From assembly GCA_000002445.1 (NCBI GenBank), contig CP000066.1:352001-416000 (forward strand): a DNA stretch of 64,000 nucleotides, in the 5' to 3' direction. The position numbers and the translations under genes were made by a program. Below the pieces are notes generated by a model. The model was not told the DNA's origin, made no database searches, and worked only from the letters and a program-made list of their open reading frames with translations. This stretch comes from Trypanosoma brucei. Its lineage: Eukaryota. Of the stretch, positions 13,378 to 57,693 are shown piece after piece; position 1 is the first letter of the stretch; every line of letters begins with the position of its first letter.

Positions 13378-13379
<2 letters not shown>

Positions 13380-13421
13380 GCTGGGTATAACTGGTATACG
13401 TGTATTTTAGTTGCTTTGGGG

Positions 13422-17859: not shown

Positions 17860-17886
17860 TGTGTGTGTGTGTGTGTGTGTGTGTGT
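17860..17886. repeat. (GT)n microsatellite (mirror copy as (CA)n at 49505-49534)
   Basis: Read directly in the sequence. Confidence 0.95.
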
Positions 17887-23629: not shown

Positions 23630-26600
23630 AAATATATGCATATAAATATTAAAACTATTATATTTATGATGAGATACATGGGTTTTTTTAATACCGTCGG
23701 AAAAATTAATCAAATGTTTCTGTTTCAATATGTGCTTCCCTTTGGATGGCATAAAATATAATGGGGGGTGTGCAAGGTGTAATGTAAACATTTTTAGTTT
23801 TCGCTGTGGTGGCAGATGCTTACATATATTAAAATGATTTTATCGTTTCAGTGCCTAAGCCGTTTCTGCTTTGATGTCGGTGAGTGCCGAGCGAATTCGC
23901 GGATGATGTGCTGTACGAGTGGGGGATTACGTAAATAATTGATTTTTCGACTTATGTAAAGAAACGTATTTCGACATGCTTAAGATATTTTAAGTTAGGG
24001 AAATGTATACCCTTAAATGCATGCGGAGAGCGGCGGCAGGTGCTGTCGTCCACATTTTCCACAACGCTGAATACGACAGTACAGGCGAAAAAATTGCGAC
24101 AACATTCGTGAAGTGGGGGACTTGTATGTAAAGGTCCGAGAATTAAAAAAGTGTGGGTAAGCTTATGCAGATTAGGTCCCGAGTCCCCGTGACTCCTTTT
24201 CTATCAAATCTAGTGCATGCTGCGAGGACACCTTTTTGAGGTACTCCGACGCTGCGTTTTTAACGTCATTAATATCATTTGGGAATTTGAGCAATGAGGT
24301 AAGCGGTTGAGTTAGTGGGTAAGAATATTGCTTACTGGTAAGTGTGTTCTTAGGTTCAACTTACCAAATCAGGTAGATGTTGCCGATGTGTATGCCGGAG
24401 GGAGGTGGAAATGCAAGAGAGGGAGCCACTTCATTATTACATTTTTCGCGGATATGCAAGACGGTCACCTGCAAAGAATTTTGCTACGCGACTGAAAACA
24501 GAGAAAACAGAGTGTGTATAGGCTGAAGTATCAAAAAGGGGAGGCAAGTTCCCAGGGGGTGTTCTAGTATAAATGGCCCGAAAATTGAGAAAAAAAAGAT
24601 CGGGTACTGATTATCCAGTTAATGGCCTAAGACTGCTTGTGGTTGAGGTGTCTGTGTTTTCCCTAATTCATTCTCCTCTGGAGATGCAAATAAATTCATG
24701 TTTGGTGGTGTACTATATGACCGAAAGTTGTGTTCTTTGAGAATAATAAGGCGGTTGTATGCGGCTTCGTTTATGAGGAGCCGTAACGATTTGGGGCGAC
24801 TCTCCGCGATGGAGCGATGAGGGAGTTCACCGCCACCCGAGGGGGTTTTGGTCGATTTTGGAGATTTTGTAACATTGGGGCAGGGGCGAGAGAGTACTGA
24901 GGATATGTTAAGTATCCTTTCTCATAATTTGACTTAAAAGCGAAGTCTTACGTGGGGAGGAACGAGAGGTTACGTTGAACTTGTGCGTGCTTCCAGTTAG
25001 TATTCTGCTGGCTGTGTGGATGCACAACTTGAACCTGACTTACTTTTACCATATGCGGGAGACGGCGTATTCATGTCGACGAAATGTGGTGGTATCTGGG
25101 TATTGATCATATTGCCCGTTTGGCGCATCTACGATAACAATAGTGATGAGAGAGGTGTGCTGATTGCGTACGATGGTGCAACGTTATTTCAGGGGCAGTA
25201 TCGAAGTTGTATAATTTCATGTGCAGGCGAGTAGGATTGCTGGGAAGGAGAGTTTGTGTATGGTGCGTGTGCGAGAGTAAGGGCTATACGGCACCATAGC
25301 GAACTAAAGTGACTGAACTTATTTTCTCATTTGGTGCAAGGTCGCAGCGCAAACCAGCCACGAGTGGCACTCCCATAATAGGCGGCTCGTCGATACGTCA
25401 TGTGTATACTTCCAGAAAAAGTGCTCGTGCGGAGTAAGCAAAAACGTCATGTATATGGTTAGTGTTCACACGTTGGGAGCACAGTGTTTTATACCGAGAA
25501 GATATGGGTAATATTGCATATACAGTGGGTTTTTTTTAGCAAAGTAAGGAGTAACTTAGCAAACGGGTTGTGTGAAATGGCGTCTTTTTTCGGTGATGCC
25601 ACAATCGTCTGTGATGGCGAGGGAGGGAGGGTTGACATCAACGTAACCAATGTGAGTGTCTTCTGGACTGATGTGAGGAGCAGTGGAGTTCTGCTATTTG
25701 GAAGGATAACGAATGACAGGTATATTAACGTTCACAGAGGTAGACTAGATGCCAGGCTGCTTCTATTTCTCGTTCCTTCCTCGTGGTGACCGCGCCGCCG
25801 TTCTGCCCACAAATATGCATTACGTGTAAGTGGTGGTAAAGAAAGGGGGGATTGTTTACCTATCCCTCATGAAAGGACGTGTTAAAGGCGAAATGGCTTC
25901 TCAAAAGTGCAGAGAATGTTTTCTAGGTGGAGCACCGTCTTTCTGAGAACCGCGAGCAAGGGCTCACCCAGTTTGGTCAAGTGTTGTCTGCTTCATTTTC
26001 TATGCTTTGGTGTACCTCGCCTTTACAGTTTGAGGTGAAAGGGGAACATAATTAACTTAACCGCCCCCGCTCATTTGCACTCTGACTTCCGCAGTATGTG
26101 TTGTTTCTGCGTGGGCGTAGAGGAGCTGTTAGGCGAGTGGTGCCTTCACATTACGGAGGGATGAAATAACGAATGACAGACTGCAGTTTGTTTTTAACGT
26201 AACATGCATCTTTCTTTAGGTAGCGGACGTTGAACCCGCAGAAAGTGTGTTATTGTGACGTTAGAGGAAGAGGCAAGTCAAAAGATAAGCGGATACTAAC
26301 TAAACACTTTCGAGGCCGCCTGCATGGATAAATGGATAAATCAAGAGAAACAACAGATAAAACACGAGAATTACCTTTTATCGCGCGTCGCTCCTGCAGT
26401 AGGACGACCTTCTTCAGAATTCCTGGGCACAACTGCTGTCAGTACGTCCAGCAGGCTAGCTCGGGAAGAAAACTTAACCATAGTCTTCAACATACGCGCA
26501 TAAGTTCCTTTTGATTAAACAACCGGGTGGGATGGTTTTCCATCGTTTCCAGTCTACCAAGGGCAAATAGAAAAGCGGCAGCACCGCATTCATAACGCGA

Positions 26601-27404: not shown

Positions 27405-28307
27405 TTGTTGGATCTGAAAATGACGAGTGCTTCAAAAAAATCAACGGAAGAAAATAGTGAGGAAGTGGAATGTACCAATAGCTCCAGGAAACGGCGGATG
27501 AGACAGAGGGAACGGAACATATACATCTCGGAATGCCATGGAATAAAGGAGCTATCGTCGCTCGTACGTCGCGGGTTCCAGCAGATAATGACGGCGAGAG
27601 GGTTGTTTATATCTGGGTGCCCTGATCTCGTAAAACTGGATGATGGGACCAGTGGGGAAGAAGAGGGGGGAGAATATTACAGGCAGCTGGAAGAAGTCCA
27701 AGTTAGCAGGTGCCCTCGACTCACCGATTTAAGCGGGTTGGGGAAGTGCAAGTACTTGAAGGTGGTTGATATTTCTGACTGCCGAAAACTGGAAAACATA
27801 GGGGAACTTAAAAGTTGTCGAACACTGGAGAAACTCGCGCTCTCACGGTGCACAGGCTTGGTGGATGTGAATTTGAGGGGATTTGGTAAGTTGTTATCTT
27901 TCGATATTTTCAAATGTGCGAACTTGACAAAGATATGCGGACTTTTCGGATGCCCCATACTAGAAACATTAACCGTTGAGGAGTGTGGAGACGTGAAAGA
28001 AATGGAGGTACGAACTATACGAGGACGGGTGGAAACGCTGAGAATTGCAGGGAAGAGGGCTATGGAAAATGTGGGATTTTTGTGCCTCTTCACCAATATG
28101 AAAAAGCTCGCACTATGTGGGTGTGTTGGGACTGTCGCGGAGGTACTCGGAGAGGAGGCCGGTGGGCTTCCCCGTCTAAAATGGTTGGAGTTGATTGGCA
28201 TCCGCATGGAAAGGCAAATGAAGGATAAGCCTGGAAATGGTGTTGCAGCGACTGAGGAAGGAAATAACGCTAAACGGGTATTACCAATGATTGTTCAGAA
28301 CGAATGA
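27405..28307 (+). CDS. leucine-rich repeat protein (LRRP/ESAG8-like), short 300-aa member or fragment
   Basis: Tandem ~23-aa LRRs with the LxxCxxLxxL pattern (LSGLGKCKYLKVVDISDCRKLENIGELKSCRTLEKLALSRCTGL...), the same type as the 816-aa neighbour. The N-terminus is basic and its extent is uncertain. Confidence 0.5.
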   Translation: MLDLKMTSASKKSTEENSEEVECTNSSRKRRMRQRERNIYISECHGIKELSSLVRRGFQQIMTARGLFISGCPDLVKLDDGTSGEEEGGEYYRQLEEVQVSRCPRLTDLSGLGKCKYLKVVDISDCRKLENIGELKSCRTLEKLALSRCTGLVDVNLRGFGKLLSFDIFKCANLTKICGLFGCPILETLTVEECGDVKEMEVRTIRGRVETLRIAGKRAMENVGFLCLFTNMKKLALCGCVGTVAEVLGEEAGGLPRLKWLELIGIRMERQMKDKPGNGVAATEEGNNAKRVLPMIVQNE

Positions 28308-29469: not shown

Positions 29470-31920
29470 ATGGCAACACAGTTAAATAGTGATACGGTGA
29501 CAGACTCGTTTCCGAAAAGTGGGGAACAGCAATCGCGGTCAGACAGCGGGCTTGGTGAAAGGATGAACGCGGCAAGAAACAAAGGATGGAAAGAATTAGA
29601 TATATCCTATTTCAAGGAGGTGGAGGATGTGGGGAACCTCTGTGAAGTGGCAGGTTTGTTCTTGGAGGACCTAAACTTTAGCTGGTGCACGAACATCCGC
29701 ACAACTGGGTTGGAAAAAATATGCACAGTTGAGTGCTTTCCGAGTCTGCAAAGGCTGTATCTGAACGGCACAGGGACAAATGACAGATGCATCGACAAAC
29801 TCAGCCGTGGGAATCTAAGAGTTTTGGAGTGCGGGTATTGCAGAAACATTACGGACGTTAGGCCCCTTGAAAGGAATGAAACGCTGGAAGTACTTTCGCT
29901 TCGAGGGTGCCAGAACATCGTCCATGGGTTGGAGGATGTTTGCGGTCGGTGGCTAATAAATTTGAGAGAATTGTACTTGAGCGATATGGTAGCCGTCACG
30001 GATGCGTGCATAGAAGCTATCGGTAATAGTAAAAAAAGCCTGGTCCGCTTGGAATGTGAAAATTGTGAAAGAATCACAAACGTCAGTGCGTTGGGAAACG
30101 TCAAGACATTGAAGGTATTGTTGCTCAATCACTCCAAGAACATCGCAGAAGGAGTTTCTAATATCTTCGAAATATCGGAGCTTCAAGACTTAGGCTTCCG
30201 TGGTTTTGCTAAAATTACGCAAGTAAATTTGATGCCGTGGCAGCGTTGTGCGAGTTTAACAACCCTTGATCTCTCTGGATGCAAAAAAGTAACGAACTTG
30301 AATCTGGGTGGGGAGTGTAGAAAACTCGTGTGCCTTAAGCTTTCAGAGTGTCCGCAGCTGCGGGAAGTGGATATCACCGGGTGTGAAAGTTTGACTGCAC
30401 TAAATATTTCCGGACGTTGGCATCTTAAAGTTGTGAAATTGAATGGATGCAAGGAGTTGAAGTCGATTGATCTTTCCGTGTGTCCGCACCTTGAAGACGT
30501 ATATGGAGTATGCGACTGCAAAAACTTGGAAATTTTTAACCTTTGTTTTTGTTCACGACTCACAAAATTGGAACTGGTTGAGCTTGAAAAGTTAAAAATG
30601 TTGAATCTTTGCGGGTGTAAGGACCTTGAAGATATCGGAAGTCCAAGCAGGTGGGGCAAAAACTTGGTGGAGCTTAATGTTTCAATGTGCCGGAAGCTTA
30701 ACTACATGGATTTAAGCGGAAGAGTGAAGCTGGAGAAACTTAACCTTTCTCAATGCGACAGCCTTGTAGAGGTGAATTTAAGTGGGTGCCAAAACCTCTC
30801 TTCTTTACTTGATCTTTCAAACAGCAGGGAGCTCGAAATCTTGAATTTGTGCAACTGTGGGGAGTTGCCGGCGCTTAACGTTGACGGATGCGTGAATCTG
30901 CAAATACTGATTCTGAGCGGATGCCGCAGTCTGTCGACCATGAAACTTTCCGAATGCAACAACCTCAGGGAGACAGATTTTAGCGGCTGTGCGAAGTTGT
31001 CGGCTATCAAACTTTCCAGTAGAAGGGGGATAAAGTTAGTTAAATTGGACGGTTGTATAGATTTGATGTCTCTGGATTTGTCAGAGTGTGTGAGCCTTAA
31101 GGATTTGATTGGAGTAAGTGGCTGTACCCAACTCAAGTCACTCAATCTCTCAGGTTGCAGCAGGCTCGCTGATGTCGCCGCACTAAAGGACCTCAAGGGG
31201 CTGGTGAGGCTCAACCTTTCCAGGTTGGTGGAGGTTGTGGACCTGAGCATGCTGACTGGGCACGAGGATCTGGAGGAGCTCAACCTATCTCAATGTAACG
31301 CACTTGCCGATATAAGCGGACTGAAGGGCGAATGCTCGACAAAACTGATATCTTTGAATGTATCATGGTGCAGGAGCCTTTCGGCTATCTGTGTGCTGAG
31401 TGAGTGTTGCCGTAATTTGACCACGCTGGATATTTCAGGTTGCTGGAACCTCGATGATATGAGCGTGTTGGGGTCGTTAAAGAGCTTGAGTGTTCTTAAT
31501 CTTTCTTGGTGCAGTCAACTGACCGACATAAATATGTTAGCGGGTTTGAACTGCTTGGCTGTTCTTAACCTTTCTTGGTGCAATCAGCTGGTTGATGCGA
31601 GTGTAGTGAGCGAGTTGGAAAGTATAGCCATTCTTAACCTTTCATATTGTTGTGAATTAGCGCGTTTAAATTTGAGCGGATGCATAAAACTAAAGTGCCT
31701 TGATATCTGTGGATGCGTATCCCTCAAACATTTAACTGGATTACGCAAGTGCACGAATTTAGAATCACTCTTCGCTTGCGGATATCGCGACGCGGCAGAA
31801 GACGTTCGTGACGAGTTCCTGAACATTCCATGCTCCGCTACGTTACATATCGATGAAAGCACGGACCGGGAGGTAATACAGGAACTCATGGGTTGGGGTG
31901 TTAGAGTCAAAACAATCTGA
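29470..31920 (+). CDS. leucine-rich repeat protein (LRRP, ESAG8-related LRR family), 816 aa, about 25 LRRs, no RING finger seen
   Basis: Long array of 22-24-aa Cys-containing LRRs (L-S/N-L-S-x-C-x-x-L-x-D/E-x-x-x-L). This is the repeat type I recall for T. brucei ESAG8/LRRP1. It is the last + strand gene before the strand switch. Confidence 0.8.
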   Translation: MATQLNSDTVTDSFPKSGEQQSRSDSGLGERMNAARNKGWKELDISYFKEVEDVGNLCEVAGLFLEDLNFSWCTNIRTTGLEKICTVECFPSLQRLYLNGTGTNDRCIDKLSRGNLRVLECGYCRNITDVRPLERNETLEVLSLRGCQNIVHGLEDVCGRWLINLRELYLSDMVAVTDACIEAIGNSKKSLVRLECENCERITNVSALGNVKTLKVLLLNHSKNIAEGVSNIFEISELQDLGFRGFAKITQVNLMPWQRCASLTTLDLSGCKKVTNLNLGGECRKLVCLKLSECPQLREVDITGCESLTALNISGRWHLKVVKLNGCKELKSIDLSVCPHLEDVYGVCDCKNLEIFNLCFCSRLTKLELVELEKLKMLNLCGCKDLEDIGSPSRWGKNLVELNVSMCRKLNYMDLSGRVKLEKLNLSQCDSLVEVNLSGCQNLSSLLDLSNSRELEILNLCNCGELPALNVDGCVNLQILILSGCRSLSTMKLSECNNLRETDFSGCAKLSAIKLSSRRGIKLVKLDGCIDLMSLDLSECVSLKDLIGVSGCTQLKSLNLSGCSRLADVAALKDLKGLVRLNLSRLVEVVDLSMLTGHEDLEELNLSQCNALADISGLKGECSTKLISLNVSWCRSLSAICVLSECCRNLTTLDISGCWNLDDMSVLGSLKSLSVLNLSWCSQLTDINMLAGLNCLAVLNLSWCNQLVDASVVSELESIAILNLSYCCELARLNLSGCIKLKCLDICGCVSLKHLTGLRKCTNLESLFACGYRDAAEDVRDEFLNIPCSATLHIDESTDREVIQELMGWGVRVKTI

Positions 31921-34900
31921 GACCGGCATGATTGCTCGCCAGGTGGTGTAAGCAGTTGTGTGGCCGAAGCTGATCTTTACACATTTTTTTTGCGCGCGGC
32001 ACAGGGTCAAACACATGCTACCGGAAAGCAGGCTAGCCTATACCCACTCCCTTTCATAGACAGACAACTTTTTTTCTGGAACAAGTCCAGTTGCGCCATC
32101 ATTTTAAGCGTTGAACGTAGTGGCTGCCATCGTACGGGTGCGCGGGGCCGTAGGTGCACACACCTTTCGGCCACATATGTCTACTTCAATTGAGGCTATG
32201 ACGTTGCTTAACGCTAAGGTGAAATGACAACTCTACGTGAATAGGTGCTTTTATTTCAAACATGACCTAATAGTTACGAAATACATAACATTCTTTGATA
32301 ACACAGCGGATTATTCACCACCCAACCACTATCACCTTGTCTTCTCGTATTTTCTCTCGCCCTTTCATTCCAGCACACTTACGAACTGGTATTTTCCACG
32401 CTTCTTCTCATTTTTTTTGCATGCCCACACGGTCCTTAAAGTTCACAAATTTTAGTTTGTAACCCGCCTTCTAAATGATAGAAGTTGTTGTGACAAAAGC
32501 GTAAGAGGTCGCCGAATACACATATCAACGCAGACGAAGCCACGACAAAAAAATTAAAAGGCACGCATAAAGCGACATATGTTATCCATAAGTACTAACA
32601 CATTGGGTAACAACACCCCGAGGCATCGCATCTTCAACAAAAATGTAAAACAAATGATCATTAGCCACACTTTTACAGCGCCGAAATGTTATCTGCTTTT
32701 CTTGTAAACCCCAAACCTCCCAAACATATTTAAAAAAAATTTAGCACAATTCTGATTTGTAACTTTTTCTTACCTCCGCTAAACCTACCTCTTTTAGCAC
32801 CCATCGATTAAGTACCTAGCATCTCCCTATGTTTACTTTTTGTTTGACATCTTTTAGCTAGCGGTCGACTTCGCATTACTACTTCACCCACTGCGGCGTT
32901 AGGTCTGTTCGCGCTGGCAACAGTGATGCCCCCGGCACCTTCTGATTTAGTTGCATTGTTACGTGCCATGGTTTCAGCCGACGCATACCTTTAAACCTTG
33001 CTGTTTGGATTTCTGTGTGCCGCATCGGAGGGAGGCAGCGCTTCCTTTTCTACATCGTCGGGCCTAAACAACTTTACCAAGAAAATTTCCACATCTACGC
33101 GAAGCCGTTAACCTCTTTTCTCTGGTCTAATCAAGCCACATTATCCACTTAGTGCTCAGGGGCTATTCATTGTAGTAAGTGTGTGGGAGTTTCCACTCAC
33201 CCTACTCTTAGAGCGTCACAGCAGCCCTCTATTTTGTGCCCACGCCAGTGCTACAAGTTCTCGATGAGGGTACCTTGTTCCATACATTTTGTCGGGTGGT
33301 GCGTGCATTGGAGATTCTTTGGAACCGTTTTCAATGTCAGGAACGCTCCGCTTCTCAATCTCTTCCCATTCAATTTTTATCTGGGTGTTTGTTCCCATAA
33401 AGTAGAGTACCCCCCGCCACATCAATGCGCTCGGCTGCACCTTCAATAGAGTAATTGGCTCCGACGCCAAGACCACGTGGCCAGTGCCGTAAAGGTCTTC
33501 CGTTCGCCCGTAGGACCTGATTAAAGTTGAAAAGACGTCCAAATGCGTTGCGTTGGTGTGTGGAATAACGTGGCGACGAAAAGTGGTAACTTCAACAGAA
33601 GGTAGCGGCTTTCAGTGAAGGCTCTTTTTCCAAAGCGTCGTTGACACCTCACCCGCCAGTGAGGTAAGTGGCCGCTAATTTTACACCCATGGGGTTTCCT
33701 CAACTGGCAAAGCCCATTCTCTAAGGTTGAGCTTCCTGTGGCCTCGTCTGCTCGCAGGTGAAATTTATGCAGTTTTATTCTTCACTAACTGTTTGATTTT
33801 CCGCGTGGTGTAAAGTGGGCAACAAAAACGAGGGGGTATTATTGTAGGCATCAAGCAATCCTAAGGGTGTACTTCCTTCGGAGTGGACTCAAATTCTTTA
33901 CAACCAAGAGCCCTACCAATTAAAAAGAAGGTGCAAGCAAGAAACCTCACTGCGCGTACAAAAGTAAACAAAAGAGGTGAATAATAACGGCCGAATACTG
34001 TAAAAAAAAACTAATGCGGAACAGTTGTGTGTGTTGTGGTTTGATCAATGTTATTCGCAGCCTCGGGCTCCCACCAAAAAACTAAGACTTGTAGGAGAGT
34101 GGTGTGTGACAACCAAGCTTGGGTGTTCTTGCAGTCAGTCAGAAAGTGGTGGTTATTTTTCAATTATAACAATGAGCACTATAACTGTACTAAGGAACTT
34201 TAGAAAACAGACACGAAGAGTCTTGCCACTAGCAGTACCGTTGAGTTGGAGTCAAAGTTAAATTAGGAGCGGTTTCCAGTTCCCTGCAGACCACCAGAGT
34301 TAACACCAACCTCTTCTTCAGCATCTTTCAAAGTTCGCCACCGCTGGAGTGTCAGCAATTGCGCTTTAAATATCACCTCTCGACCATGTGGTGTTCTATG
34401 CGAGAAGTGATGTGGCTACCACAAACTTTGTGCCTTTTGTGTTCATTTCCATGGACCTCCCTAGAGTTCCATCAAGTAGCCCACCTGCATTCAATGTTTC
34501 ACTAACTGCATACTACAGTGGTGTACGCGGCATTCTAGCAACAGCCTTCCTCAGTCAGTCGTGTCTCACCTCGAGGTGTTTAATCTTGTGACGGCTACTT
34601 GGCGATGGTCTCTAAGTTCTTTGGCCGTAATGCACCTTATATTTGTGTCACTGACAGAATTCTCAAACCCACTATCTGTTGTGCGTTCCGCTAACCGCTG
34701 TAACGACCTATTGGCTTCTCCCACTTCCGCAGATGGGTCCTTCGTTTCTAGGAGATTGATTCGTAGCATCGTCTGCGTTCTTGTATGTCCTCCCTTCCTT
34801 TGCAAACACCCCCACCCTGTAACCCCCATACCCATCACCCTCATGTTCTTTTTGTTCACCTTACTCTCCTGTCCACCTATCTGTATCACCGGACTGTTGT

Positions 34901-36093
34901 TGTATCTCTACTCCAAAACATGCAACACTGTTCCACGTAACTTTCGCAATTTTCCTCACTACACAAATTTCCACGAACTCCTTAAACCTCCGAAAGCGAC
35001 GAATCGGCCCCACTTTGGTGATATCCCCCTCAACCTTGTCAAGTATCCCCCTGCTCTTCCCTTGTGATGCGGTTGTTGAAAACGACTAATACACACAAAA
35101 CTCCCAGTGTACTCCATCCTACCACAAAAAAAAAACATATAGTTGCATCCTCCATCGCCTGTTACCAACATTTGATTTCCGATTATTTTTTGTATGCGCA
35201 GCATAAAGTTCCTTAAATTACCCTCACACCATGATATTTATAGTGGTTAACAACAGTCTCTCTCCTATCGATAAAGGGGTGAACCAGCCGCTTTGCACAC
35301 ACTTTGTGCCCGGCTACATCTTTTTGTCTCTAAGGTGAGGGCATTTTCCCGTGAATTTATGATTTCACCGCATTTTTTTCCTCCAAATTTCTGCCAACTC
35401 TGTATTGAAACAACTGAACTCATTCTATCAAATATTCCGTTAATTCTTGAGCACATCAGCACACACTCTCGAAAACCCGGTGAATGCTGCGACAAAACCT
35501 CCATCGGAGCGATCACGCTTTAGACAGAAATGCAATTCCTGAGAACATTACCGATAAAACGTGTAACCATCCGCACTACATTCAACTCTACACTTTTCTG
35601 GGAGTCTTTACCACACACCTTTATCCCTTCTATTCACTTAAGGTGTTAAATCTAATTTACTCAATACCTATTTCAAGGGATTGTCAATTCCATCTTGTTA
35701 AAAAAGGGACAAACCAGCTTGGAAGGAGTTTTCCTTTCTATTCCGCATTCTTTCACTTCACGGGATACTGAGAGTATTGTTCAGTCAATATTATTGAAAA
35801 AAAAATGTCAACACACTGCTGTAGCAAAAAAAAAAAAGAAAGCATAACTTGAGTGATATTTGAATCACATCACGTCGCTTACTATATGAATTTCCCATTT
35901 ACATTTGCTATCCTCTAATTCACATCCCTCCCCTGCCTTGAATCCACTAGTGTTTACCTGTTGTTGACGTTACCATCGTTAAACGTCAGAAGAGCCTTTT
36001 TTGGAATCACGCCCGTGCTCATTCTGACGTTGCTTTCCTTTTCTCTTAGTTTCCCGTCTTACCTGATATTTGCCAATTCAAACCAGGTTTTAC

Positions 36094-37194
36094 TTAATTT
36101 TTGGCATTGCCAATTTTCCTGTTTGACTCTTCAAACTCTTTTTGTAGCTTTTCAATGGCATCTGCGAGCGTTCTCTTATCATTCTCGTAGTCTTTCAGAT
36201 CCCTCATTTCGTTGAAAACTTTTAACAACTCCCTCATCCACGGTATATTCTTAATATCTCTGTTCCTACCCCTAACCACGTAGCGCACACGGTGGCCAGG
36301 GGCTTCTTGGGGCAGAATCCAGAGCCGCCAGAAGCTGAACTTTCTCCTATCACCAAAGACATAGGTAGTTCCGGTACATCCATCAACACCGTGGTTAATC
36401 ATGTCGCGGAAGTCGTTTACTAGTTTGTTAAACCCTTCTTGTGGGCCTTCCATACTTGAGCACTGTTCTTTGAGAAAATACCACCTTTCCCCCGCGTCTT
36501 CATCTGGTCTCCACACCGCCCTATTATCTCCCCTAGCGCAACGACTACAGCAGAGCTGAGTTTCTCTTCCCAAATTCATACGAGGCGCGCACAAACACAA
36601 CAAATCCCTACTCAATGATACGGACGCTTTAAGCTTTTGTGAACGTGAGAGTTGCTGCTCACATACCTGTCTCCTGTCGGAACTGCGTGCTTTAATTTCT
36701 TGTGGTCGATATGGAACACCATACAGCGCGCGATTAATACCTTTTTCGAGATCACTTGCTTTCAAAACCCATCTCCGATTTTTGGTTATATTTTGGAATA
36801 TCTGCGCAACGGAAAGAACCTTTTTTCTAATCTCCACCACTTCACGTTCGGACAATCCTCCTACCGAAAGTAGGGTTGTATTTCCCCTAGTTGCCAATTC
36901 TTTTTTCGATTCATTCCAAAACACTTTGTGGAGTGCACAGTTTCTTTTCCCCGCGCCTTCGCAAGTTTTGTTCAAATCCCTGTCTCCACTCATTTCCAAA
37001 TACATTGCTCCAATTCGAGCCGCCCCTTTAGTGATTTCCTGTGCTTCTTTCATCTTTCCAAGTGCTGCTTCTGCCAAATTTATCATGCCACACAATGTCT
37101 TAAACTCATCCCCGTTAACTATCCGCCGATCACCCGAGACAGTTGCCGGGAATACCAGCGCAAGCAAAACAGTGCAAAGATTTATAGCGCGCAT
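36094..37194 (-). CDS. surface/secreted protein B, copy 1 (366 aa). Signal peptide present, no hydrophobic C-terminus, so it is secreted or partners with a GPI-anchored protein.
   Basis: Signal peptide MRAINLCTVLLALVFPATVSG, NGDEFKTLCG and DLLCLCAP motifs shared with gene A, several NxS/T sequons. On the - strand, consistent with the right-hand gene block. Confidence 0.7.
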   Translation of the reverse strand: MRAINLCTVLLALVFPATVSGDRRIVNGDEFKTLCGMINLAEAALGKMKEAQEITKGAARIGAMYLEMSGDRDLNKTCEGAGKRNCALHKVFWNESKKELATRGNTTLLSVGGLSEREVVEIRKKVLSVAQIFQNITKNRRWVLKASDLEKGINRALYGVPYRPQEIKARSSDRRQVCEQQLSRSQKLKASVSLSRDLLCLCAPRMNLGRETQLCCSRCARGDNRAVWRPDEDAGERWYFLKEQCSSMEGPQEGFNKLVNDFRDMINHGVDGCTGTTYVFGDRRKFSFWRLWILPQEAPGHRVRYVVRGRNRDIKNIPWMRELLKVFNEMRDLKDYENDKRTLADAIEKLQKEFEESNRKIGNAKN

Positions 37195-40100
37195 TCTCTC
37201 CCTTCACTTCAATCAACAACTTCACCTCTTAAAAATACACAAGAAGATCATATAAAAATGCGAATGCATACCCCACATGCACCTTTGAATAAGTTATAGG
37301 AGTTGATAGAAAGGTAAATATACTACAAGTCAAATACCAACATTTGATGGATGTGCTTCTAAAAGTAAAAAAAGACTTAAGTAGTGTTAGATGGCAGTTT
37401 ACAAAAGTGGAGGTAAGTGTCCTTGGTGCCAAATCGACGCATGCTCTGGCATTTCATTTGGACCTTGATTTCTGCTGTAGGGAGGTTGCATCACTTCCGT
37501 AAATCTTGGGCTTATCCACTGTAGAAATAACCTATGACACTTTATACTTCCGAAGAATTAACTTTTTTCATTGTTATTTTCTTTGAGGAACACAGAAAAT
37601 CTGTACGAAGGTGGTTTTGAGTTGGGCTTTTGTTTTCACCAGTTTCTTCTGCATTTCGCATCCACAAAGTTTTGCAGACTCTACTTTGGTTGCCTGTTAT
37701 TTCGTTTGCCTTAGTAGTTGCATTTTTTTCTTTCAGTTTTGGCATACATAAACAAACGCCGTTACTGGTGCCGTCGTAAATTAAGCAAAGGCGGTGCCGC
37801 AACGTAAATTTGCCCGAACATTGGCGAGTGCCCAGTTCTTCATCTCCTCTAAACGAGCGGGAAATCTCATTCTGACTTGACCTCTGCGGTTTGTGTTTCT
37901 CCAAAGGAACCGCTCATACATCTGACACATCTAAAAACGCAAGTTTCAATGCAACACCACTATGTTTTCGGCAGTCTCTGTCATTCAAAAATTATTATCC
38001 CCATAGCAACCATTCAATCTTCCAATTATTTTCCACAAACCCGACTGTGACATTAAGAATTATCGTGCGCTTTCCAGTTGAGATGACGTGCACATAGGAG
38101 AGACAAATTCAAAAGATAGAGTAAAAATGTTAAAGTTAAGTTTGCTAATAAAGCGATATCGTTTTTGAACCATCGGGTAGTCACATTTTTGATGGTTAGG
38201 TTAACAAAATGCTGTTTTTACAGGAAAACATCAGAGTTGTCCGTGACGTGTCTTAATCAGTTACGTCGCTGAATTCCAAGCTACTAAGAGCGGTCCCGCG
38301 TTAATTTTTCCAGATCTTAAACCGCTAAATGTATCATTTTCTAGTTAACCTCAAGTTCTGATGCATTTTCACGCAGGAGCCTGCACCCAAAATTGTAATT
38401 CGAGGCTACGTTACAAAACACCACCTAAAACGCACAATTACAACTCTTCATCTCCAGCACTTGGACGTGCGCATCGCACACAATGACCACCTGCCTTCTT
38501 TGAACTCAATCTGATGCAGAAAAAAAGCGCATCTCCCCTCTCCGACAGCGAAAAAAGCATGCATGCACCCACAATCGCCACGAAAATAGTTTCCCCTCTC
38601 ACCATAAAATCTTCCAATAATCCTTAATCTACCTAAAAAAATATAAGAACAGAGTAAGTGACCACGTATAGAATCATTCCCAATCAAACCGTTCACTACG
38701 AGCAAGACTATGTCATATGCCGATCACTTGATCCGCACATTTCATCAAGCTTGCCACGTACTGTCTTTATCCCATTAGCTACTAATCATCGGTTTTATTA
38801 CCTATTTCCCACCAATCCCGCACGTCCACCAATAAGAGCAATTTACATTTTACGCAGTACGCCAGTGCTCCTCGATTAAGTACCTAGCATCTCCCTATGT
38901 TTACTTTTTGTTTGACATCTTTTAGCTAGCGGTCGACTTCGCATTACTACTTCACCCACTGCGGCGTTAGGTCTGTTCGCGCTGGCAACAGTGATGCCCC
39001 CGGCACCTTCTGATTTAGTTGCATTGTTACGTGCCATGGTTTCAGCTGACGCATACCTTTAAACCTTGCTGTTTGGATTTCTGTGTGCCGCATCGGAGGG
39101 AGGCAGCGCTTCCTTTTCTACATCGTCGGGCCTAAACAACTTTACCAAGAAAATTTCCACATCTACGCGAAGCCGTTAACCTCTTTTCTCTGGTCTAATC
39201 AAGCCACATTATCCACTTAGTGCTCAGGGGCTATTCATTGTAGTAAGTGTGTGGGAGTTTCCACTCACCCTACTCTTAGAGCGTCACAGCAGCCCTCTAT
39301 TTTGTGCCCACGCCAGTGCTACAAGTTCTCGATGAGGGTACCTTGTTCCATACATTTTGTCGGGTGGTGCGTGCATTGGAGATTCTTTGGAACCGTTTTC
39401 AATGTCAGGAACGCTCCGCTTCTCAATCTCTTCCCATTCAATTTTTATCTGGGTGTTTGTTCCCATAAAGTAGAGTACCCCCCGCCACATCAATGCGCTC
39501 GGCTGCACCTTCAATAGAGTAATTGGCTCCGACGCCAAGACCACGTGGCCAGTGCCGTAAAGGTCTTCCGTTCGCCCGTAGGACCTGATTAAAGTTGAAA
39601 AGACGTCCAAATGCGTTGCGTTGGTGTGTGGAATAACGTGGCGACGAAAAGTGGTAACTTCAACAGAAGGTAGCGGCTTTCAGTGAAGGCTCTTTTTCCA
39701 AAGCGTCGTTGACACCTCACCCGCCAGTGAGGTAAGTGGCCGCTAATTTTACACCCATGGGGTTTCCTCAACTGGCAAAGCCCATTCTCTAAGGTTGAGC
39801 TTCCTGTGGCCTCGTCTGCTCGCAGGTGAAATTTATGCAGTTTTATTCTTCACTAACTGTTTGATTTTCCGCGTGGTGTAAAGTGGGCAACAAAAACGAG
39901 GGGGTATTATTGTAGGCATCAAGCAATCCTAAGGGTGTACTTCCTTCGGAGTGGACTCAAATTCTTTACAACCAAGAGCCCTACCAATTAAAAAGAAGGT
40001 GCAAGCAAGAAACCTCACTGCGCGTACAAAAGTAAACAAAAGAGGTGAATAATAACGGCCGAATACTGTAAAAAAAAACTAATGCGGAACAGTTGTGTGT

Positions 40101-42162
40101 GTTGTGGTTTGATCAATGTTATTCGCAGCCTCGGGCTCCCACCAAAAAACTAAGACTTGTAGGAGAGTGGTGTGTGACAACCAAGCTTGGGTGTTCTTGC
40201 AGTCAGTCAGAAAGTGGTGGTTATTTTTCAATTATAACAATGAGCACTATAACTGTACTAAGGAACTTTAGAAAACAGACACGAAGAGTCTTGCCACTAG
40301 CAGTACCGTTGAGTTGGAGTCAAAGTTAAATTAGGAGCGGTTTCCAGTTCCCTGCAGACCACCAGAGTTAACACCAACCTCTTCTTCAGCATCTTTCAAA
40401 GTTCGCCACCGCTGGAGTGTCAGCAATTGCGCTTTAAATATCACCTCTCGACCATGTGGTGTTCTATGCGAGAAGTGATGTGGCTACCACAAACTTTGTG
40501 CCTTTTGTGTTCATTTCCATGGACCTCCCTAGAGTTCCATCAAGTAGCCCACCTGCATTCAATGTTTCACTAACTGCATACTACAGTGGTGTACGCGGCA
40601 TTCTAGCAACAGCCTTCCTCAGTCAGTCGTGTCTCACCTCGAGGTGTTTAATCTTGTGACGGCTACTTGGCGATGGTCTCTAAGTTCTTTGGCCGTAATG
40701 CACCTTCCATTTGTGTCACTGACAGAATTCTCAAACCCACTATCTGTTGTGCGTTCCGCTAACCGCTGTAACGACCTATTGGCTTCTCCCACTTCCGCAG
40801 ATGGGTCCTTCGTTTCTAGGAGATTGATTCGTAGCATCGTCTGCGTTCTTGTATGTCCTCCCTTCCTTTGCAAACACCCCCACCCTGTAACCCCCATACC
40901 CATCACCCTCATGTTCTTTTTGTTCACCTTACTCTCCTGTCCACCTATCTGTATCACCGGACTGTTGTTGTATCTCTACTCCAAAACATGCAACACCGTT
41001 CCACGTAACTTTCGCAATTTTCCTCACTACACAAATTTCCACGAACTCCTTAAACCTCCGAAAGCGACGAATCGGCCCCACTTTGGTGATATCCCCCTCA
41101 ACCTTGTCAAGTATCCCCCTGCTCTTCCCTTGTGATGCGGTTGTTGAAAACGACTAATACACACAAAACTCCCAGTGTACTCCATCCTACCACAAAAAAA
41201 AACATATAGTTGCATCCTCCATCGCCTGTTACCAACATTTGATTTCCGATTATTTTTTGTATGCGCAGCATAAAGTTCCTTAAATTACCCTCACACCATG
41301 ATATTTATAGTGGTTAACAACAGTCTCTCTCCTATCGATAAAGGGGTGAACCAGCCGCTTTGCACACACTTTGTGCCCGGCTACATCTTTTTGTCTCTAA
41401 GGTGAGGGCATTTTCCCGTGAATTTATGATTTCACCGCATTTTTTTCCTCCAAATTTCTGCCAACTCTGTATTGAAACAACTGAACTCATTCTATCAAAT
41501 ATTCCGTTAATTCTTGAGCACATCAGCACACACTCTCGAAAACCCGGTGAATGCTGCGACAAAACCTCCATCGGAGCGATCACGCTTTAGACAGAAATGC
41601 AATTCCTGAGAACATTACCGATAAAACGTGTAACCATCCGCACTACATTCAACTCTACACTTTTCTGGGAGTCTTTACCACACACCTTTATCCCTTCTAT
41701 TCACTTAAGGTGTTAAATCTAATTTACTCAATACCTATTTCAAGGGATTGTCAATTCCATCTTGTTAAAAAAGGGACAAACCAGCTTGGAAGGAGTTTTC
41801 CTTTCTATTCCGCATTCTTTCACTTCACGGGATACTGAGAGTATTGTTCAGTCAATATTATTGAAAAAAAAATGTCAACACACTGCTGTAGCAAAAAAAA
41901 AAAAAAGAAAGCATAACTTGAGTGATATTTGAATCACATCACGTCGCTTACTATATGAATTTCCCATTTACATTTGCTATCCTCTAATTCACATCCCTCC
42001 CCTGCCTTGAATCCACTAGTGTTTACCTGTTGTTGACGTTACCATCGTTAAACGTCAGAAGAGCCTTTTTTGGAATCACGCCCGTGCTCATTCTGACGTT
42101 GCTTTCCTTTTCTCTTAGTTTCCCGTCTTACCTGATATTTGCCAATTCAAACCAGGTTTTAC

Positions 42163-43263
42163 TTAATTTTTGGCATTGCCAATTTTCCTGTTTGACTCTT
42201 CAAACTCTTTTTGTAGCTTTTCAATGGCATCTGCGAGCGTTCTCTTATCATTCTCGTAGTCTTTCAGATCCCTCATTTCGTTGAAAACTTTTAACAACTC
42301 CCTCATCCACGGTATATTCTTAATATCTCTGTTCCTACCCCTAACCACGTAGCGCACACGGTGACCTGCGAGACTGTGTGCCATGATCGGATAGCGCCAA
42401 AAGCTGAATCCAACCCCACCCCCCAAAGTATATGCCGTCCCTCTGCATTCATCTTCACCGCCGTACGTAGCCTTGCGAAAGTTGTCCACCAGTTTGTTAA
42501 ACCCTTCTTGTGGGCCTTCCATACTTGAGCACTGCTTTTTAAGGAAGTGCCATCTTCCAGTTGCATTCTTATTTGTTTCCCACATACCTTCATTTTGATT
42601 CCTAACACACTCTTTGCAGCAAAGATGGGCTTTCCATCCCAAATTCATACGAGGCGCGCACAAACACAACAAATCCCTACTCAATGATACGGACGCTTTA
42701 AGCTTTTGTGAACGTGAGAGTTGCTGCTCACATACCTGTCTCCTGTCGGAACTGCGTGCTTTAATTTCTTGTGGTCGATATGGAACACCATACAGCGCGC
42801 GATTAATACCTTTTTCGAGATCACTTGCTTTCAAAACCCATCTCCGATTTTTGGTTATATTTTGGAATATCTGCGCAACGGAAAGAACCTTTTTTCTAAT
42901 CTCCACCACTTCACGTTCGGACAATCCTCCTACCGAAAGTAGGGTTGTATTTCCCCTAGTTGCCAATTCTTTTTTCGATTCATTCCAAAACACTTTGTGG
43001 AGTGCACAGTTTCTTTTCCCCGCGCCTTCGCAAGTTTTGTTCAAATCCCTGTCTCCACTCATTTCCAAATACATTGCTCCAATTCGAGCCGCCCCTTTAG
43101 TGATTTCCTGTGCTTCTTTCATCTTTCCAAGTGCTGCTTCTGCCAAATTTATCATGCCACACAATGTCTTAAACTCATTCCCGTTAACCAGCCATTCCGA
43201 ACCCGAGACAGTTGCCGGGAATACCAGCGCAAGCAAAACAGTGCAAAGATTTATAGCGCGCAT
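42163..43263 (-). CDS. surface/secreted protein B, copy 2 (366 aa). Identical to copy 1 except for a ~90-aa mosaic patch and a 5-aa patch near the mature N-terminus.
   Basis: Same frame, length and termini as copy 1. The differences are confined to residues ~210-300 and ~22-27. Confidence 0.7.
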   Translation of the reverse strand: MRAINLCTVLLALVFPATVSGSEWLVNGNEFKTLCGMINLAEAALGKMKEAQEITKGAARIGAMYLEMSGDRDLNKTCEGAGKRNCALHKVFWNESKKELATRGNTTLLSVGGLSEREVVEIRKKVLSVAQIFQNITKNRRWVLKASDLEKGINRALYGVPYRPQEIKARSSDRRQVCEQQLSRSQKLKASVSLSRDLLCLCAPRMNLGWKAHLCCKECVRNQNEGMWETNKNATGRWHFLKKQCSSMEGPQEGFNKLVDNFRKATYGGEDECRGTAYTLGGGVGFSFWRYPIMAHSLAGHRVRYVVRGRNRDIKNIPWMRELLKVFNEMRDLKDYENDKRTLADAIEKLQKEFEESNRKIGNAKN

Positions 43264-44342
43264 TCTCTCCCTTCACTTCAATCAACAACTTCACCTCTTA
43301 AAAATACACAAGAAGATCATATAAAAATGCGAATGCATACCCCACATGCACCTTTGAATAAGTTATAGGAGTTGATAGAAAGGTAAATATACTACAAGTC
43401 AAATACCAACATTTGATGGATGTGCTTCTAAAAGTAAAAAAAGACTTAAGTAGTGTTAGATGGCAGTTTACAAAAGTGGAGGTAAGTGTCCTTGGTGCCA
43501 AATCGACGCATGCTCTGGCATTTCATTTGGACCTTGATTTCTGCTGTAGGGAGGTTGCATCACTTCCGTAAATCTTGGGCTTATCCACTGTAGAAATAAC
43601 CTATGACACTTTATACTTCCGAAGAATTAACTTTTGTTTGTTTTTTCCCTTTATGCTAGTTGTTCCAGCCATTGCTCGACGTCTTCTATAAACTGAAGTT
43701 TACAGTTGGTGGAGTCGAGTCATTAAAAGGTTATTGAGATGTAATAATACTCTGTAGCGTGAAGCATCATCATTGAATATGAAATGAACTTCCCCAACAA
43801 CATCGACCATCTGACGCAACGCCACACACTTCACTCGAGTGCACCCCTTCACCCTCCACTTACTATCATAACGGGCGCACAAAAACAAAGACTGCAACCA
43901 AAGCCTGTCAGAACCATGATTTACGAAAATCATAAAACAGAAACTTCCACGGATAAGTTAGCATACGGCATTTACGTCTGAGCCGTCTGCCTTCGAAACT
44001 GAATATCAGCTTCCGATCTCACACAAAAACTTGGCATAAGTTTCCTGTACCAGCAGGAGCCACACAAAAATATAACAAATGCACATAAACAAAACCTCCT
44101 TCCTCCCCCTCCAGCTTTTTATTATAAATCACAATCATGTTAATATATGTAAGTATCTGCCACCACAGCGAAAACTAAAAATGTTTACATTACACCTCGC
44201 ACACCCCCCATTATATTTTATGCCATCCAAAGGGAAGCACATATTGAAACAGAAACATTTGATTAATTTTTCCGACGGTATTAAAAAAACCCATGTATCT
44301 TATCATAAATATAATAGTTTTAATATTTATATGCATATATTT

Positions 44343-45440
44343 TTAATTTAAGAGCAGTAAAAGAAGTATTTTTAAAGGGTTAGGGTTAGGGTTCCCATTT
44401 ACTGACCAAAGTGGTCGTGTTTGTGGTTCTGCGGATGTATTAGTTCCGCTTTCATTCATTAGTGGATCTTCTAGATTATATTCAGTGTTATTACCATCAT
44501 TGTGCTTGTAATTAATATTATCATTATCATTATTATTGTTATTATCATCATTAGTGCGAATGCCTTCGTTAATCTTTCGGTCCGTTGAAGGTGCGGCATC
44601 TCCAACTCCATTTGGAACGGTTTCGACGTCGTTTTCACTCGTGCCCAAATTGGTTCGTGTATCATTCGGTATTTTCTCGGCAAGTTCTTCAAGATGCTTT
44701 AACCAGGGGATGCTATGGTTGGTGAGTGTGCCGGAAGTGATGTTATACATCAAACACACCGAATTACCCTTTCCAGTGGTTGCTGAGCATTGCTTCACTT
44801 CTGTTGCCTGATGACCCCCGAGTCGTATGTTTTGATCTGATTCCCTTCCCTTCTTTTCTGTCGCTGTTCTCAGTACTGCTTGAACTTTTTCCTTTAAGTG
44901 GTATAATTGATTTTGTATATGTTGCTCCCGTTTCGGAAGTTGGTTACAATGCAACCTTATTTTCTCCCAATGCTGCTTAGCTTGCTCTTTATTGCTCCAC
45001 ACCTCACCGCCCTTGTACCACTTGTTACCGCTAAAACACAGATCTTCTGCACCAGCCCCGTTTTGGCCCTGCCTTCTGTGGGGTTTACATAGACACAAAA
45101 TATCCTTTATTAAGCTTTTCCCCGCATATTTGTGGGCTCGATTTTGCCTGTCCCCGCAGTAATCTTTCCTGTCGTTTTCGCCTTCGAAACCAATTTCGGT
45201 GCTGCCTTTGTTGCCGTACAAAATGGTATTCACGGACTCGTTAACACTTTCAGGTTTCAATCCTCCAAGTGTTGGCTTTCCTTCACTCGCCAATTTCTGT
45301 ATTTCAAACGTCAGATTGACAAATCCACATAATGTTTTAAACTCGTTTTCATTCAATATTTGTGAACCCTTCTTTCCTGCTTTTGAACTTTCCACTGTCC
45401 CAGTCAACAATACGACAATAAATGAGAAATATATCCGCAT
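44343..45440 (-). CDS. surface protein A, right-arm copy. The 365-aa protein is 100% identical to 22532-23629.
   Basis: Identical translation in the ORF track. Confidence 0.7.
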   Translation of the reverse strand: MRIYFSFIVVLLTGTVESSKAGKKGSQILNENEFKTLCGFVNLTFEIQKLASEGKPTLGGLKPESVNESVNTILYGNKGSTEIGFEGENDRKDYCGDRQNRAHKYAGKSLIKDILCLCKPHRRQGQNGAGAEDLCFSGNKWYKGGEVWSNKEQAKQHWEKIRLHCNQLPKREQHIQNQLYHLKEKVQAVLRTATEKKGRESDQNIRLGGHQATEVKQCSATTGKGNSVCLMYNITSGTLTNHSIPWLKHLEELAEKIPNDTRTNLGTSENDVETVPNGVGDAAPSTDRKINEGIRTNDDNNNNNDNDNINYKHNDGNNTEYNLEDPLMNESGTNTSAEPQTRPLWSVNGNPNPNPLKILLLLLLN

Positions 45441-47957: not shown

Positions 47958-49247
47958 TCACTCATATGGAGCAATCGGATCATTTTTGAGACCCCGCTGC
48001 GCTCTACGGAAGAGCGGCGTTAAGCAAATGCCCGCCCACACAACAAAAACAGCGCAGATTGTCCAAAATGGTATGAGTGTGCTGCCCTCGCCAGTCATAA
48101 ACGGAACTTTTAAGTTCATACCGAACAAAGATACGACAAGGTTGATGGGAAGAGAAACAGCAGCAACACTGTTCAGAATATTCATCTTGAAGTCGAGTCC
48201 TGCGGACGCCTGCGACATGCGCATAGAAACACCCGTAATGAAGTTCAGGTTTGCATGATTTAACATATCACGAGCATCATCCAGCTTCTCTGAAACCTTT
48301 TGGACTCTTGCCAGTATTTCCTTGTAGGCCACAGCACTCGGGTGACTCTTAGAAACGAACGTTAAACGCATTGCTGGTGAAATAAGCTGGTGAATCAGTT
48401 TTTCCTTCAGGAACAATGCTGTTCGAAAACTAGAAATACGGCGCCGTAACAACGCTACACGACGGAGGAGGTCTGTCTGATCCTGCTCACCAGGCGAAAT
48501 CAGAAAGACCATTTCATTAATATCACCAACCTCACTCAGCAGCGAGGCAGGTGCTGGAAAGGAGGCCTCACAAGTGAAACACACGAGAGTACATAGGGCA
48601 TCTGTTCCCATAGCAACAGGAACAAAAGAAGAACGATGTGACGAAGGATCCTTCACAATGCCAACAACCGAATCCTCGCATTCACGGCTATGTCTCTCCG
48701 CTTCACTTCCATTACATTTGAGAACATGACGAAATAACTCCGCGAGACCGGCAAACGGTGCTGTATGCAGCGTCAGTAGTACACGCTCACTACACACAAA
48801 CGAGCACAAAACCCCTTCCTCGCAACCTAACTCAGTGCGCGACATAGCGGTTGCAGCAGGAAACGGTCCGCCGTGGCTCGGGGAACACGAAAGGCAGCCA
48901 ACAACATACTCACCTTCCGTAGGTTGCAACTCCACCACGTCGTACATATCATTTGCAAGCACAGCCTCCACGTGACTCGGCTGCATGTTTGGGTAAAGCA
49001 GCTGTAAAACTTGCCGATGCTCTTCTTCACTGCACTTCTGCATGTCCACCCATAAACCACACAGTGCAATTCCCGGTAAGTTGTTGCGTAAGAAAACTAG
49101 TGCATCTGCAGCAGATTCCAAAGCACATGTTTGTAGTGACATGCGCCCTGCAGTCTGCCATGTAACGACACAAAGGCACCCGTCACGTCCCACTGGTGTG
49201 GTTACGGGAGGTGAAGCCTCTCCTTTAGTGGCACACGGCATTGCCAC
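47958..49247 (-). CDS. CorA/MRS2-family magnesium transporter-like protein (GMN motif), paralog 2 (429 aa)
   Basis: The N-terminal 176 aa are identical to paralog 1. The C-terminal ~250 aa are divergent but homologous. ...VVSLFGMNLKVPF... is followed by a TM helix. Confidence 0.7.
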   Translation of the reverse strand: MAMPCATKGEASPPVTTPVGRDGCLCVVTWQTAGRMSLQTCALESAADALVFLRNNLPGIALCGLWVDMQKCSEEEHRQVLQLLYPNMQPSHVEAVLANDMYDVVELQPTEGEYVVGCLSCSPSHGGPFPAATAMSRTELGCEEGVLCSFVCSERVLLTLHTAPFAGLAELFRHVLKCNGSEAERHSRECEDSVVGIVKDPSSHRSSFVPVAMGTDALCTLVCFTCEASFPAPASLLSEVGDINEMVFLISPGEQDQTDLLRRVALLRRRISSFRTALFLKEKLIHQLISPAMRLTFVSKSHPSAVAYKEILARVQKVSEKLDDARDMLNHANLNFITGVSMRMSQASAGLDFKMNILNSVAAVSLPINLVVSLFGMNLKVPFMTGEGSTLIPFWTICAVFVVWAGICLTPLFRRAQRGLKNDPIAPYE

Positions 49248-54875: not shown

Positions 54876-55114
54876 ATGGGCAACCGTATATATATATATA
54901 AATATTTACTATAATTGTATTTGGTGTTGTTTTTATGTATTTTATTTTTGTATTCCACCCCTTGTTTGTGCGTGTGCGCTAATGGGCGACCCAACGCAAC
55001 GGCAACTTGCCAACACCCCTTCTGTTATTTGATGAAATATACCCTAAGAATAATGTGCACACAGCAAAAGAAAAAGAAAAAAAATATGTACAAGAATCAG
55101 CAGTACATGTATGC

Positions 55115-55138
55115 ATATATATATATATATATATATAT
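55115..55138. repeat. (TA)n microsatellite
   Basis: Read directly in the sequence. Confidence 0.95.

Positions 55139-57662: not shown

Positions 57663-57663
<1 letters not shown>

Positions 57664-57688
<25 letters not shown>
57664..57688. repeat. (TA)n microsatellite in an AT/pyrimidine-rich intergenic region
   Basis: Read directly in the sequence. Confidence 0.95.

Positions 57689-57693
<5 letters not shown>

Follow-up and report, generated by a model that had tools for sequence, protein, structure and literature searches.

On chromosome 3 of Trypanosoma brucei brucei TREU927, two tandem genes that belong to the VSG-related (VR; VSG, variant surface glycoprotein) class are nearly identical over most of their length and in their flanks, and differ strongly in three short stretches of the encoded protein. 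We analysed a 64,000-nt window (GenBank assembly GCA_000002445.1, contig CP000066.1, forward-strand positions 352,001 to 416,000; all coordinates below count from the first nucleotide of the window), whose proteins are exact matches to TREU927 chromosome 3 entries. Each copy of a direct repeat in this window holds one gene of the pair, and 111 of the 125 alignment columns in which the copies differ fall within 246 nt of coding sequence (CDS; P = 3e-138). The explanation that we favour, and consider probable, is an old tandem VR pair in which gene conversion would homogenise the scaffold and flanks, three head cassettes would persist, and occasional unequal crossover would generate hybrids. That the pair exists and lies at a strand switch was known before; its two-head architecture is apparently undescribed. 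We found no description of a head-divergent, scaffold-identical pair or of its concerted evolution in literature that did not include Marcello & Barry 2007, and the two genes, Tb927.3.1500 and Tb927.3.1510, were found named in one paper alone, Jensen 2009 (PMC2771046).

Self-BLAST and repeat finding over the whole window returned a single direct repeat, 32804–37579 (copy 1, 4,776 bp) against 38872–43646 (copy 2, 4,775 bp), with 97.5% identity over 4,782 aligned columns. The copies start 6067–6069 bp apart. Of the period of 6068 bp, 4,776 bp are repeated and the remaining 1,292 bp (37580–38871) are a spacer occurring once; copy 2 stops at 43646 with no second spacer after it, and the copy number, (43646 − 32804 + 1)/6068, is 1.79. 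The initial annotation had described a 6.07-kb tandem repeat of 1.78 copies at 32805–43635, and these values bear it out, the end having been placed at 43635 rather than 43646 because the last ~11 bp of the repeat are degenerate. Borders are sharp on both sides and the flanks share no similarity. Neither a gene nor, within the window, a further copy was detected for the 1.29-kb spacer, and a check of the spacer and of the 3.3-kb tail of the unit for hidden gene remnants found none.

Each unit has one convincing gene, on the minus strand as previously proposed, namely a 366-aa open reading frame (ORF) of the VSG_B family: 36094–37194 in copy 1 (AAZ10185 / XP_843744) and 42163–43263 in copy 2 (AAZ10186 / XP_843745). 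Read against the Jensen et al. 2009 gene table (PMC2771046), accession order assigns these to Tb927.3.1500 and Tb927.3.1510, respectively. Against Pfam VSG_B (PF13206, curated cut-off 25) they score 228.7 bits (1.6e-67) and 212.8 bits (1.1e-62), both matches spanning profile positions 1–352; the other ORFs of the unit are short, and those of at least 70 aa have no Pfam match. Both genes are annotated ‘variant surface glycoprotein (VSG)-related, putative’, and VR genes are annotated as such in both TREU927 and DAL972, the T. b. gambiense assembly. In the wording that PMC2771046 quotes from Berriman 2005 and Marcello & Barry 2007, VR genes are VSG-like, chromosome-internal, at strand-switch regions and without 70-bp repeats. 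The locus has these properties: it is internal to the chromosome and at a strand switch, and a search of 20–50 kb for tandem arrays of ~70-bp period found none. Thus the 70-bp repeats and the subtelomeric or expression-site position that mark canonical VSGs are missing from the pair, whose closest relatives are other internal VR genes, those of chromosome 11 and Tb927.7.180.

Identity between the repeat copies is extremely uneven along their length. The two CDSs differ at 114 positions and the proteins at 51 of 366 residues (86% identical), and the differences form three gap-free blocks, at codons 22–29, 210–243 and 260–299. Elsewhere the copies are almost the same: 0 differences in the 540 nt of codons 30–209, 1 in the 201 nt of codons 300–366, and 11 (0.3%) in the 3,675 nt of non-coding repeat. 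The last includes a 3.29-kb segment without recognisable gene downstream of copy 1 (32804–36093), 99.7% identical to 38872–42162, and the 385 bp that precede the copy 1 ATG (37195–37579), common to copy 2, which presumably contain the splice acceptor and 5' untranslated region. Cassette 1 directly follows the predicted signal peptide and reads DRRIVNGD in copy 1 (37108–37131) and SEWLVNGN in copy 2 (43177–43200). Cassette 2 lies at 36466–36567 and 42535–42636 in copies 1 and 2, unlike at 46 of its 102 nt, and cassette 3 at 36298–36417 and 42367–42486, all on the minus strand. We call the resulting versions head type 1 (copy 1) and head type 2 (copy 2). An extra N-glycosylation sequon in cassette 2, N233-A-T (codons 233–235, 42565–42573), belongs to type 2 and is absent from type 1.

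Over the 270 nt of codons 210–299, which span cassettes 2 and 3, there are 103 differences, with a proportion of synonymous differences (pS) of 0.67, a synonymous rate (dS) of ~1.7 and a nonsynonymous rate (dN) of 0.40, that is, dN/dS of ~0.24. All twelve cysteines and the framework Trp and Gly residues are retained in both head versions. Because synonymous sites are saturated while cysteines and framework residues have been kept, the cassettes are old and functionally constrained sequence sitting within a very young or recently homogenised unit. Two simple origins of the pattern were ruled out, namely positive selection as the source of the patches, by the saturated synonymous sites and dN/dS of ~0.24, and uniform decay after duplication, by the clustering of differences in three blocks.

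Both heads recur in other strains. Entries from EATRO1125 and Lister 427 have the type 1 head unchanged, with 3–5 substitutions confined to the scaffold, and both types are present in T. equiperdum OVI. The relevant OVI contig (CZPT02000139.1) consists of three pieces joined at two 10-N gaps (Ns at 1334–1343 and 3167–3176): one contains the spacer and the repeat junction on each side of it (99.9%), one the 5' part of unit 2 with type-2 cassettes (121 of 122 diagnostic sites), and one the part of unit 1 that starts at the type-1 cassettes and continues downstream (108 of 110 diagnostic sites). Since OVI has the spacer, both junctions and both head types, the two-copy array is, on this comparison, older than the split between TREU927 and OVI. 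One OVI entry, SCU64753.1 (467 aa, 2267–3682), with both cassettes in series, was considered as an unequal-crossover fusion and rejected as a gene model that runs across a 10-N scaffold gap.

The DAL972 assembly contains exactly one 4.78-kb copy and no spacer, with no Ns over the 21-kb locus. The left flank of this copy is that of unit 1 and its right flank that of unit 2 (295 of 300 positions each), its central cassettes are type 1 and its N-terminal cassette type 2, and the switch of parentage falls between 36567 and 37110, within the 540-nt identical block. As assembled, it is exactly what a single unequal crossover between the units, or single-strand annealing, would produce. The initial annotation had proposed the repeat as a substrate for unequal crossover and copy-number change, and the single hybrid copy of DAL972 supports that proposal, although an assembly collapse would look alike.

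Within TREU927 the tandem units have evolved in concert. At seven sites in the 3.3-kb tail both TREU927 units share a derived state and OVI agrees with DAL972 in the other; these changes have therefore been copied from unit to unit. The two TREU927 units are 0.3% apart in non-coding sequence, and their divergence from DAL972 is 1.05%. As read from these sites, the pattern shows concerted evolution of the tandem units by gene conversion. We found no external donor for the cassettes: in an exhaustive search of 1.84 billion representative proteins no other protein was more than 38% identical, and at 90% clustering the two head types were the sole members.

Evidence for conversion extends to two inverted repeats, missed by the initial annotation, between which the tandem repeat is nested. 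The inner pair, 20818–23839 (+) against 47162–44133 (−), is 3.03 kb long and 99.5% identical, with arms 20 kb apart; a unique 486-bp linker (43647–44132) separates the tandem repeat from its right arm. Each arm carries a VR gene of 365 aa, at 22532–23629 on the left (AAZ10182, Tb927.3.1470) and 44343–45440 on the right (AAZ10187, Tb927.3.1520), and the two genes are identical. The outer pair (0.99 kb, 99.5% identical) matches 17687–18671 (+), which takes in the N-terminal half of a CorA-like Mg2+ transporter gene and the region upstream of it, to 49707–48721 (−) in its paralogue. The CorA-like proteins, encoded at 18124–19329 (+) and 47958–49247 (−), are 100% identical over residues 1–183 and ~50% identical thereafter, so that the 0.99-kb tract looks like a conversion laid over an old duplication. 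When compared with DAL972, the 3.03-kb arms gave 23 informative sites grouping arms within a genome and 0 grouping orthologous arms (divergence 0.17–0.43% within and ~1.0–1.2% between genomes), and the 0.99-kb arms 10 and 0 (0.30–0.31% within, ~1.1–1.5% between). A motif of the arm VR gene follows suit: both arms of TREU927 read RRQGQN and both of DAL972 KKPGKD, and Lister 427 has one of each. These 23:0 and 10:0 ratios demonstrate that gene conversion homogenises the inverted-repeat arms, and judging from such site patterns it is demonstrably active across the locus, over 20–30 kb and in both orientations. The 3.03-kb inverted repeat is not among the seven large TREU927 inverted repeats of Tschudi et al. 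2012. The only other self-matches of the window are short dinucleotide microsatellites in several intergenic regions (12809–12846, 13343–13380, 55107–55149 and 57660–57701).

The VR protein of the arms is itself variable in length, at 365 aa on both TREU927 arms. In DAL972, T. b. equiperdum and Lister 427 (VSG1316) there is read-through of the stop after ...ILLLLLLN, and the protein has 433–437 aa. The arm protein is without ~80 VSG_B residues (its Pfam match covers profile positions 146–336) and has an N/D-rich low-complexity tail.

To place the cassettes on the protein we modelled it with AlphaFold2. A model from a 4-sequence alignment (mean predicted local distance difference test, pLDDT, 36) was discarded, and one from an 18-sequence alignment (pLDDT 76.6, predicted template modelling score, pTM, 0.75) was retained. 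Its long helices (residues 28–69, 116–158 and 318–365) form a three-helix bundle closest to solved class-B VSGs. The order of helices in the model would fit a class-B topology, although the segment between helices 1 and 2 is shorter than in canonical members. Cassette 1 comes immediately ahead of helix 1, and cassettes 2 and 3 lie among eight cysteines at residues 178–273. A single-protein phmmer search of PDB sequences returned nothing relevant; a profile search gave a match to VSG3, and in the profile alignment the top-surface VSG3 loop G-C-T-G-S317-A-S319-E-G-L-C-V-E-Y, with Ser317 and Ser319, stands opposite residues ~289–301, the core of cassette 3. By analogy with the class-B topology, the membrane-distal end would consist of the N-terminus plus the cysteine-rich segment that lies between helices 2 and 3. 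This topology and the loop alignment suggest that the cassettes map to the top of the fold, giving one scaffold with two heads.

The N-terminus resembles a signal peptide, and the C-terminus is hydrophilic (...EESNRKIGNAKN), with a mean hydropathy of −1.15 over the last 25 aa; neither protein ends in a tail resembling a glycosylphosphatidylinositol (GPI) signal or in a transmembrane stretch. Canonical VSGs are recognised by a C-terminal domain and a hydrophobic GPI-addition signal, and the canonical relatives in our alignment have such a domain and a hydrophobic tail, both of which the pair lacks. The designation ‘surface gene’ in the initial annotation is thus not upheld for the pair, and the proteins may be either secreted or surface-associated. 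As a class, VR proteins were enriched in a surface-labelled bloodstream-form preparation (PMC4587319).

Taken as an explanation of the whole locus, the old tandem pair would lie at the 3' end of a minus-strand polycistronic unit, beside a convergent strand switch, and inside a larger recombination-active locus of VR, LRRP and CorA genes. Gene conversion would keep the scaffold CDS, the 385 bp upstream and the 3.3 kb downstream nearly identical within a genome, leaving three short cassettes of ancient divergence, which encode the beginning of the mature protein and two parts of the cysteine-rich lobe that helices 2 and 3 enclose in the sequence. The locus would then yield two proteins with a common scaffold and two heads, both expressed mainly in bloodstream forms. 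Being direct and near-identical, the repeats would also recombine unequally and so give rise to hybrids such as the DAL972 copy. The cassettes might persist through selection for two functions, or alternatively their ~55–60% identity might bar heteroduplex formation. We tentatively raise the possibility that selection keeps two alternative membrane-distal surfaces distinct against continuous homogenisation, each with a different partner (e.g. a host factor) or the two together in a mixed oligomer like that of ESAG6/7; unequal crossover would in that case reshuffle N-terminal and central cassettes between isolates, as in DAL972.

Several points weigh against this explanation. Clustering of the three cassettes in three dimensions is deduced from the topology plus one loop alignment, and residues 284–299 are modelled at low confidence. 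Tb927.3.1500 and Tb927.3.1510 were not found in the surface-proteome supplements of PMC4587319. The single copy in DAL972 would look the same if the assembly had collapsed, and the OVI tail is a single sequence that may be collapsed as well. VSG pseudogenes are absent from protein databases, and a pseudogene could have donated a cassette. The sharp edges, with non-homologous sequence beyond them, are more readily explained by a discrete duplication than by a conversion tract, and part of the identity between the units could reflect a relatively recent duplication.

These last points lead to the most serious rival, that the duplication took place recently in the TREU927/T. equiperdum lineage, after T. 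b. gambiense split off, followed by mosaic gene conversion of the VSG kind, with diverged cassettes brought in from elsewhere (e.g. from a subtelomeric VSG or VR pseudogene) and the single copy of DAL972 as the ancestral state. It would account for the sharp edges without residual flanking similarity, for a non-coding divergence between units 1 and 2 (0.3%) below the divergence between TREU927 and DAL972 (1.05%), and for the single copy and missing spacer in DAL972; moreover, mosaic VSG formation from pseudogenes is established (PMC2771046). However, it needs at least two imports, of the type-1 N-terminal cassette into one copy and of the type-2 central cassettes (2 and 3) into the other, from donors that the exhaustive protein searches did not find, and it leaves the DAL972 gene as the exact single-crossover product of the two TREU927 types. 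The seven sites shared by the TREU927 units against OVI, which has the same array, demand conversion between units anyway, and the flanking inverted repeats of the locus demonstrably convert. We therefore regard a recent duplication as unlikely, though it deserves to be taken seriously.

Simple amplification of dosage, with two equivalent copies boosting one surface protein, would fit the identity of the flanks and of 86% of the protein and the up-regulation of both genes in bloodstream forms. It is nonetheless highly improbable given 51 residue differences that gather in three blocks, signs that each version is under purifying selection (dN/dS ~0.24, with every Cys retained), the additional glycosylation sequon of type 2 and the conservation of both versions across strains. 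The initial annotation had the duplication doubling the dosage of the minus-strand surface gene (B); with these differences it instead provides two isoforms. An assembly artefact in the TREU927 reference, of which near-perfect identity over 4.7 kb would be typical, can be dismissed almost completely: 114 CDS positions tell the copies apart, type 1 occurs independently in EATRO1125, Lister 427 and OVI and type 2 in OVI, and the independent OVI assembly holds the spacer and both junctions at 99.9%, so that on present sequences the repeat is genuine.

In cultured cells both genes are up-regulated in bloodstream forms relative to procyclic forms, Tb927.3.1500 33-fold with a signal of 13,722 and Tb927.3.1510 12.5-fold with a signal of 1,450 (PMC2771046). 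The array signal of copy 1 is thus ~9 times that of copy 2 despite the near-identical 385 bp upstream and 3.3 kb downstream, a difference that might come from the probes, from position or from CDS-dependent stability.

The repeat had also been placed at the convergence of two transcription units, and composition agrees. Plus-strand genes run to 31920 and minus-strand genes begin at 36094. The last plus-strand gene encodes an 816-aa leucine-rich repeat protein (LRRP; 29470–31920; Tb927.3.1490 by accession order; Pfam LRR_4, 1.3e-32). Over the window as a whole the cumulative G−C skew reaches its maximum at 31963, which is 43 bp beyond the LRRP stop and 841 bp short of the repeat. The unique 883-bp gap between them (31921–32803) holds this compositional switch, with a GC skew of −0.19 against +0.20 in the LRRP CDS, and the repeat starts 884 bp from the stop codon at 31920, within the ~900 bp originally stated. 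Composition is of the minus-strand type throughout the repeat, in the 3.3 kb downstream of copy 1 as well; the repeat therefore adjoins the convergence point rather than straddling it, as the final ~11 kb of the minus-strand unit. The earlier statement that it occupies the termination zone is not supported, as only its first 3.3 kb (32804–36093) lie beyond the last CDS. RNA polymerase II (Pol II) would terminate between 31.96 and 36.09 kb. The 3.3-kb sequence occurs twice, past the last gene (32804–36093) and between copy 2 and copy 1 (38872–42162), and is unlikely to be an autonomous terminator, because copy 1, downstream of the internal occurrence, is the better-expressed gene. Published studies of small interfering RNAs (siRNAs) and of H3.V do not cover the convergent strand-switch region at 31963.

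Housekeeping genes flank the VR genes (AAA ATPase, CorA-like, Rce1 and Rab3GAP), and the 64-kb window has no tRNA gene. A 300-aa leucine-rich repeat (LRR) fragment ORF (27405–28307, +), annotated at 295 aa in DAL972, precedes the full LRRP gene. VR and LRRP genes are neighbours again on chromosome 11 (Tb11.02.1564, 1566 and 1580 in the Jensen 2009 table, PMC2771046), and this neighbourhood recalls the pairing of ESAG8-like with VSG-like genes in expression sites. At the left end of the window is a 3,629-aa ORF (1759–12648, +).

The VR family is confined to T. brucei and has no assigned function; in bloodstream forms its proteins are reported, as a class, to be translated and associated with the surface. 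A pair differing at the exposed tip of the fold would offer a natural experiment, in which a swap of heads should alter recognition by ligand or antibody and leave the scaffold untouched. The locus is also a compact example of gene conversion and unequal crossover shaping a core-chromosome region beside a termination zone, with tandem and inverted repeats adjacent and a copy-number difference between subspecies, and its 3.3-kb sequence, found at the end of the unit and a second time within it, could serve to separate the effects of sequence and position in termination. None of this overturns current understanding: the architecture, the concerted evolution and the T. b. gambiense hybrid are tidy additions to a known class.

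Among known systems, the T. brucei tandem arrays of Jackson et al. 2010 (PMC2854126) are similar in that copies within a genome are closer than orthologues and that copy number and isoform content differ between T. b. brucei and T. b. gambiense; here, however, homogenisation halts at three short coding cassettes. The pair was not among the Tb927.3 entries retrieved from that paper. Like mosaic VSGs, the pair alternates between identical segments and strongly diverged ones, all in frame, in a gene of VSG fold, but no donor was found in the protein searches, the site is on the Pol II-transcribed core chromosome, and both versions are stable across strains rather than transient. With other VR genes it shares a chromosome-internal site, the vicinity of a strand switch, the absence of 70-bp repeats, the VSG_B domain and a bloodstream-form bias outside expression sites, and we see no class-level difference. 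The class-B VSGs (VSG3, VSG11, VSG615 and mVSG1954) have the same Pfam family, fold, CLC and cysteine-rich top-lobe framework, and the immunodominant, O-glycosylated loop of VSG3 has a homologue that cassette 3 covers; the pair differs from them in lacking the C-terminal domain, a GPI-signal-like tail and the cysteines of GCxG...GxCVxY, in its shortened bottom lobe (the segment between helices 1 and 2) and in not being subtelomeric. A further parallel is the ESAG6/ESAG7 transferrin receptor, a closely related pair of proteins with a class-A-like VSG fold, encoded in expression sites, that differ in localised surface regions and form a proven heterodimer with a known ligand, ESAG7 being without a GPI anchor. 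Heterodimer and ligand are features of ESAG6/7; what the two systems have in common is a pair of related VSG-fold genes set apart by localised differences at the surface.

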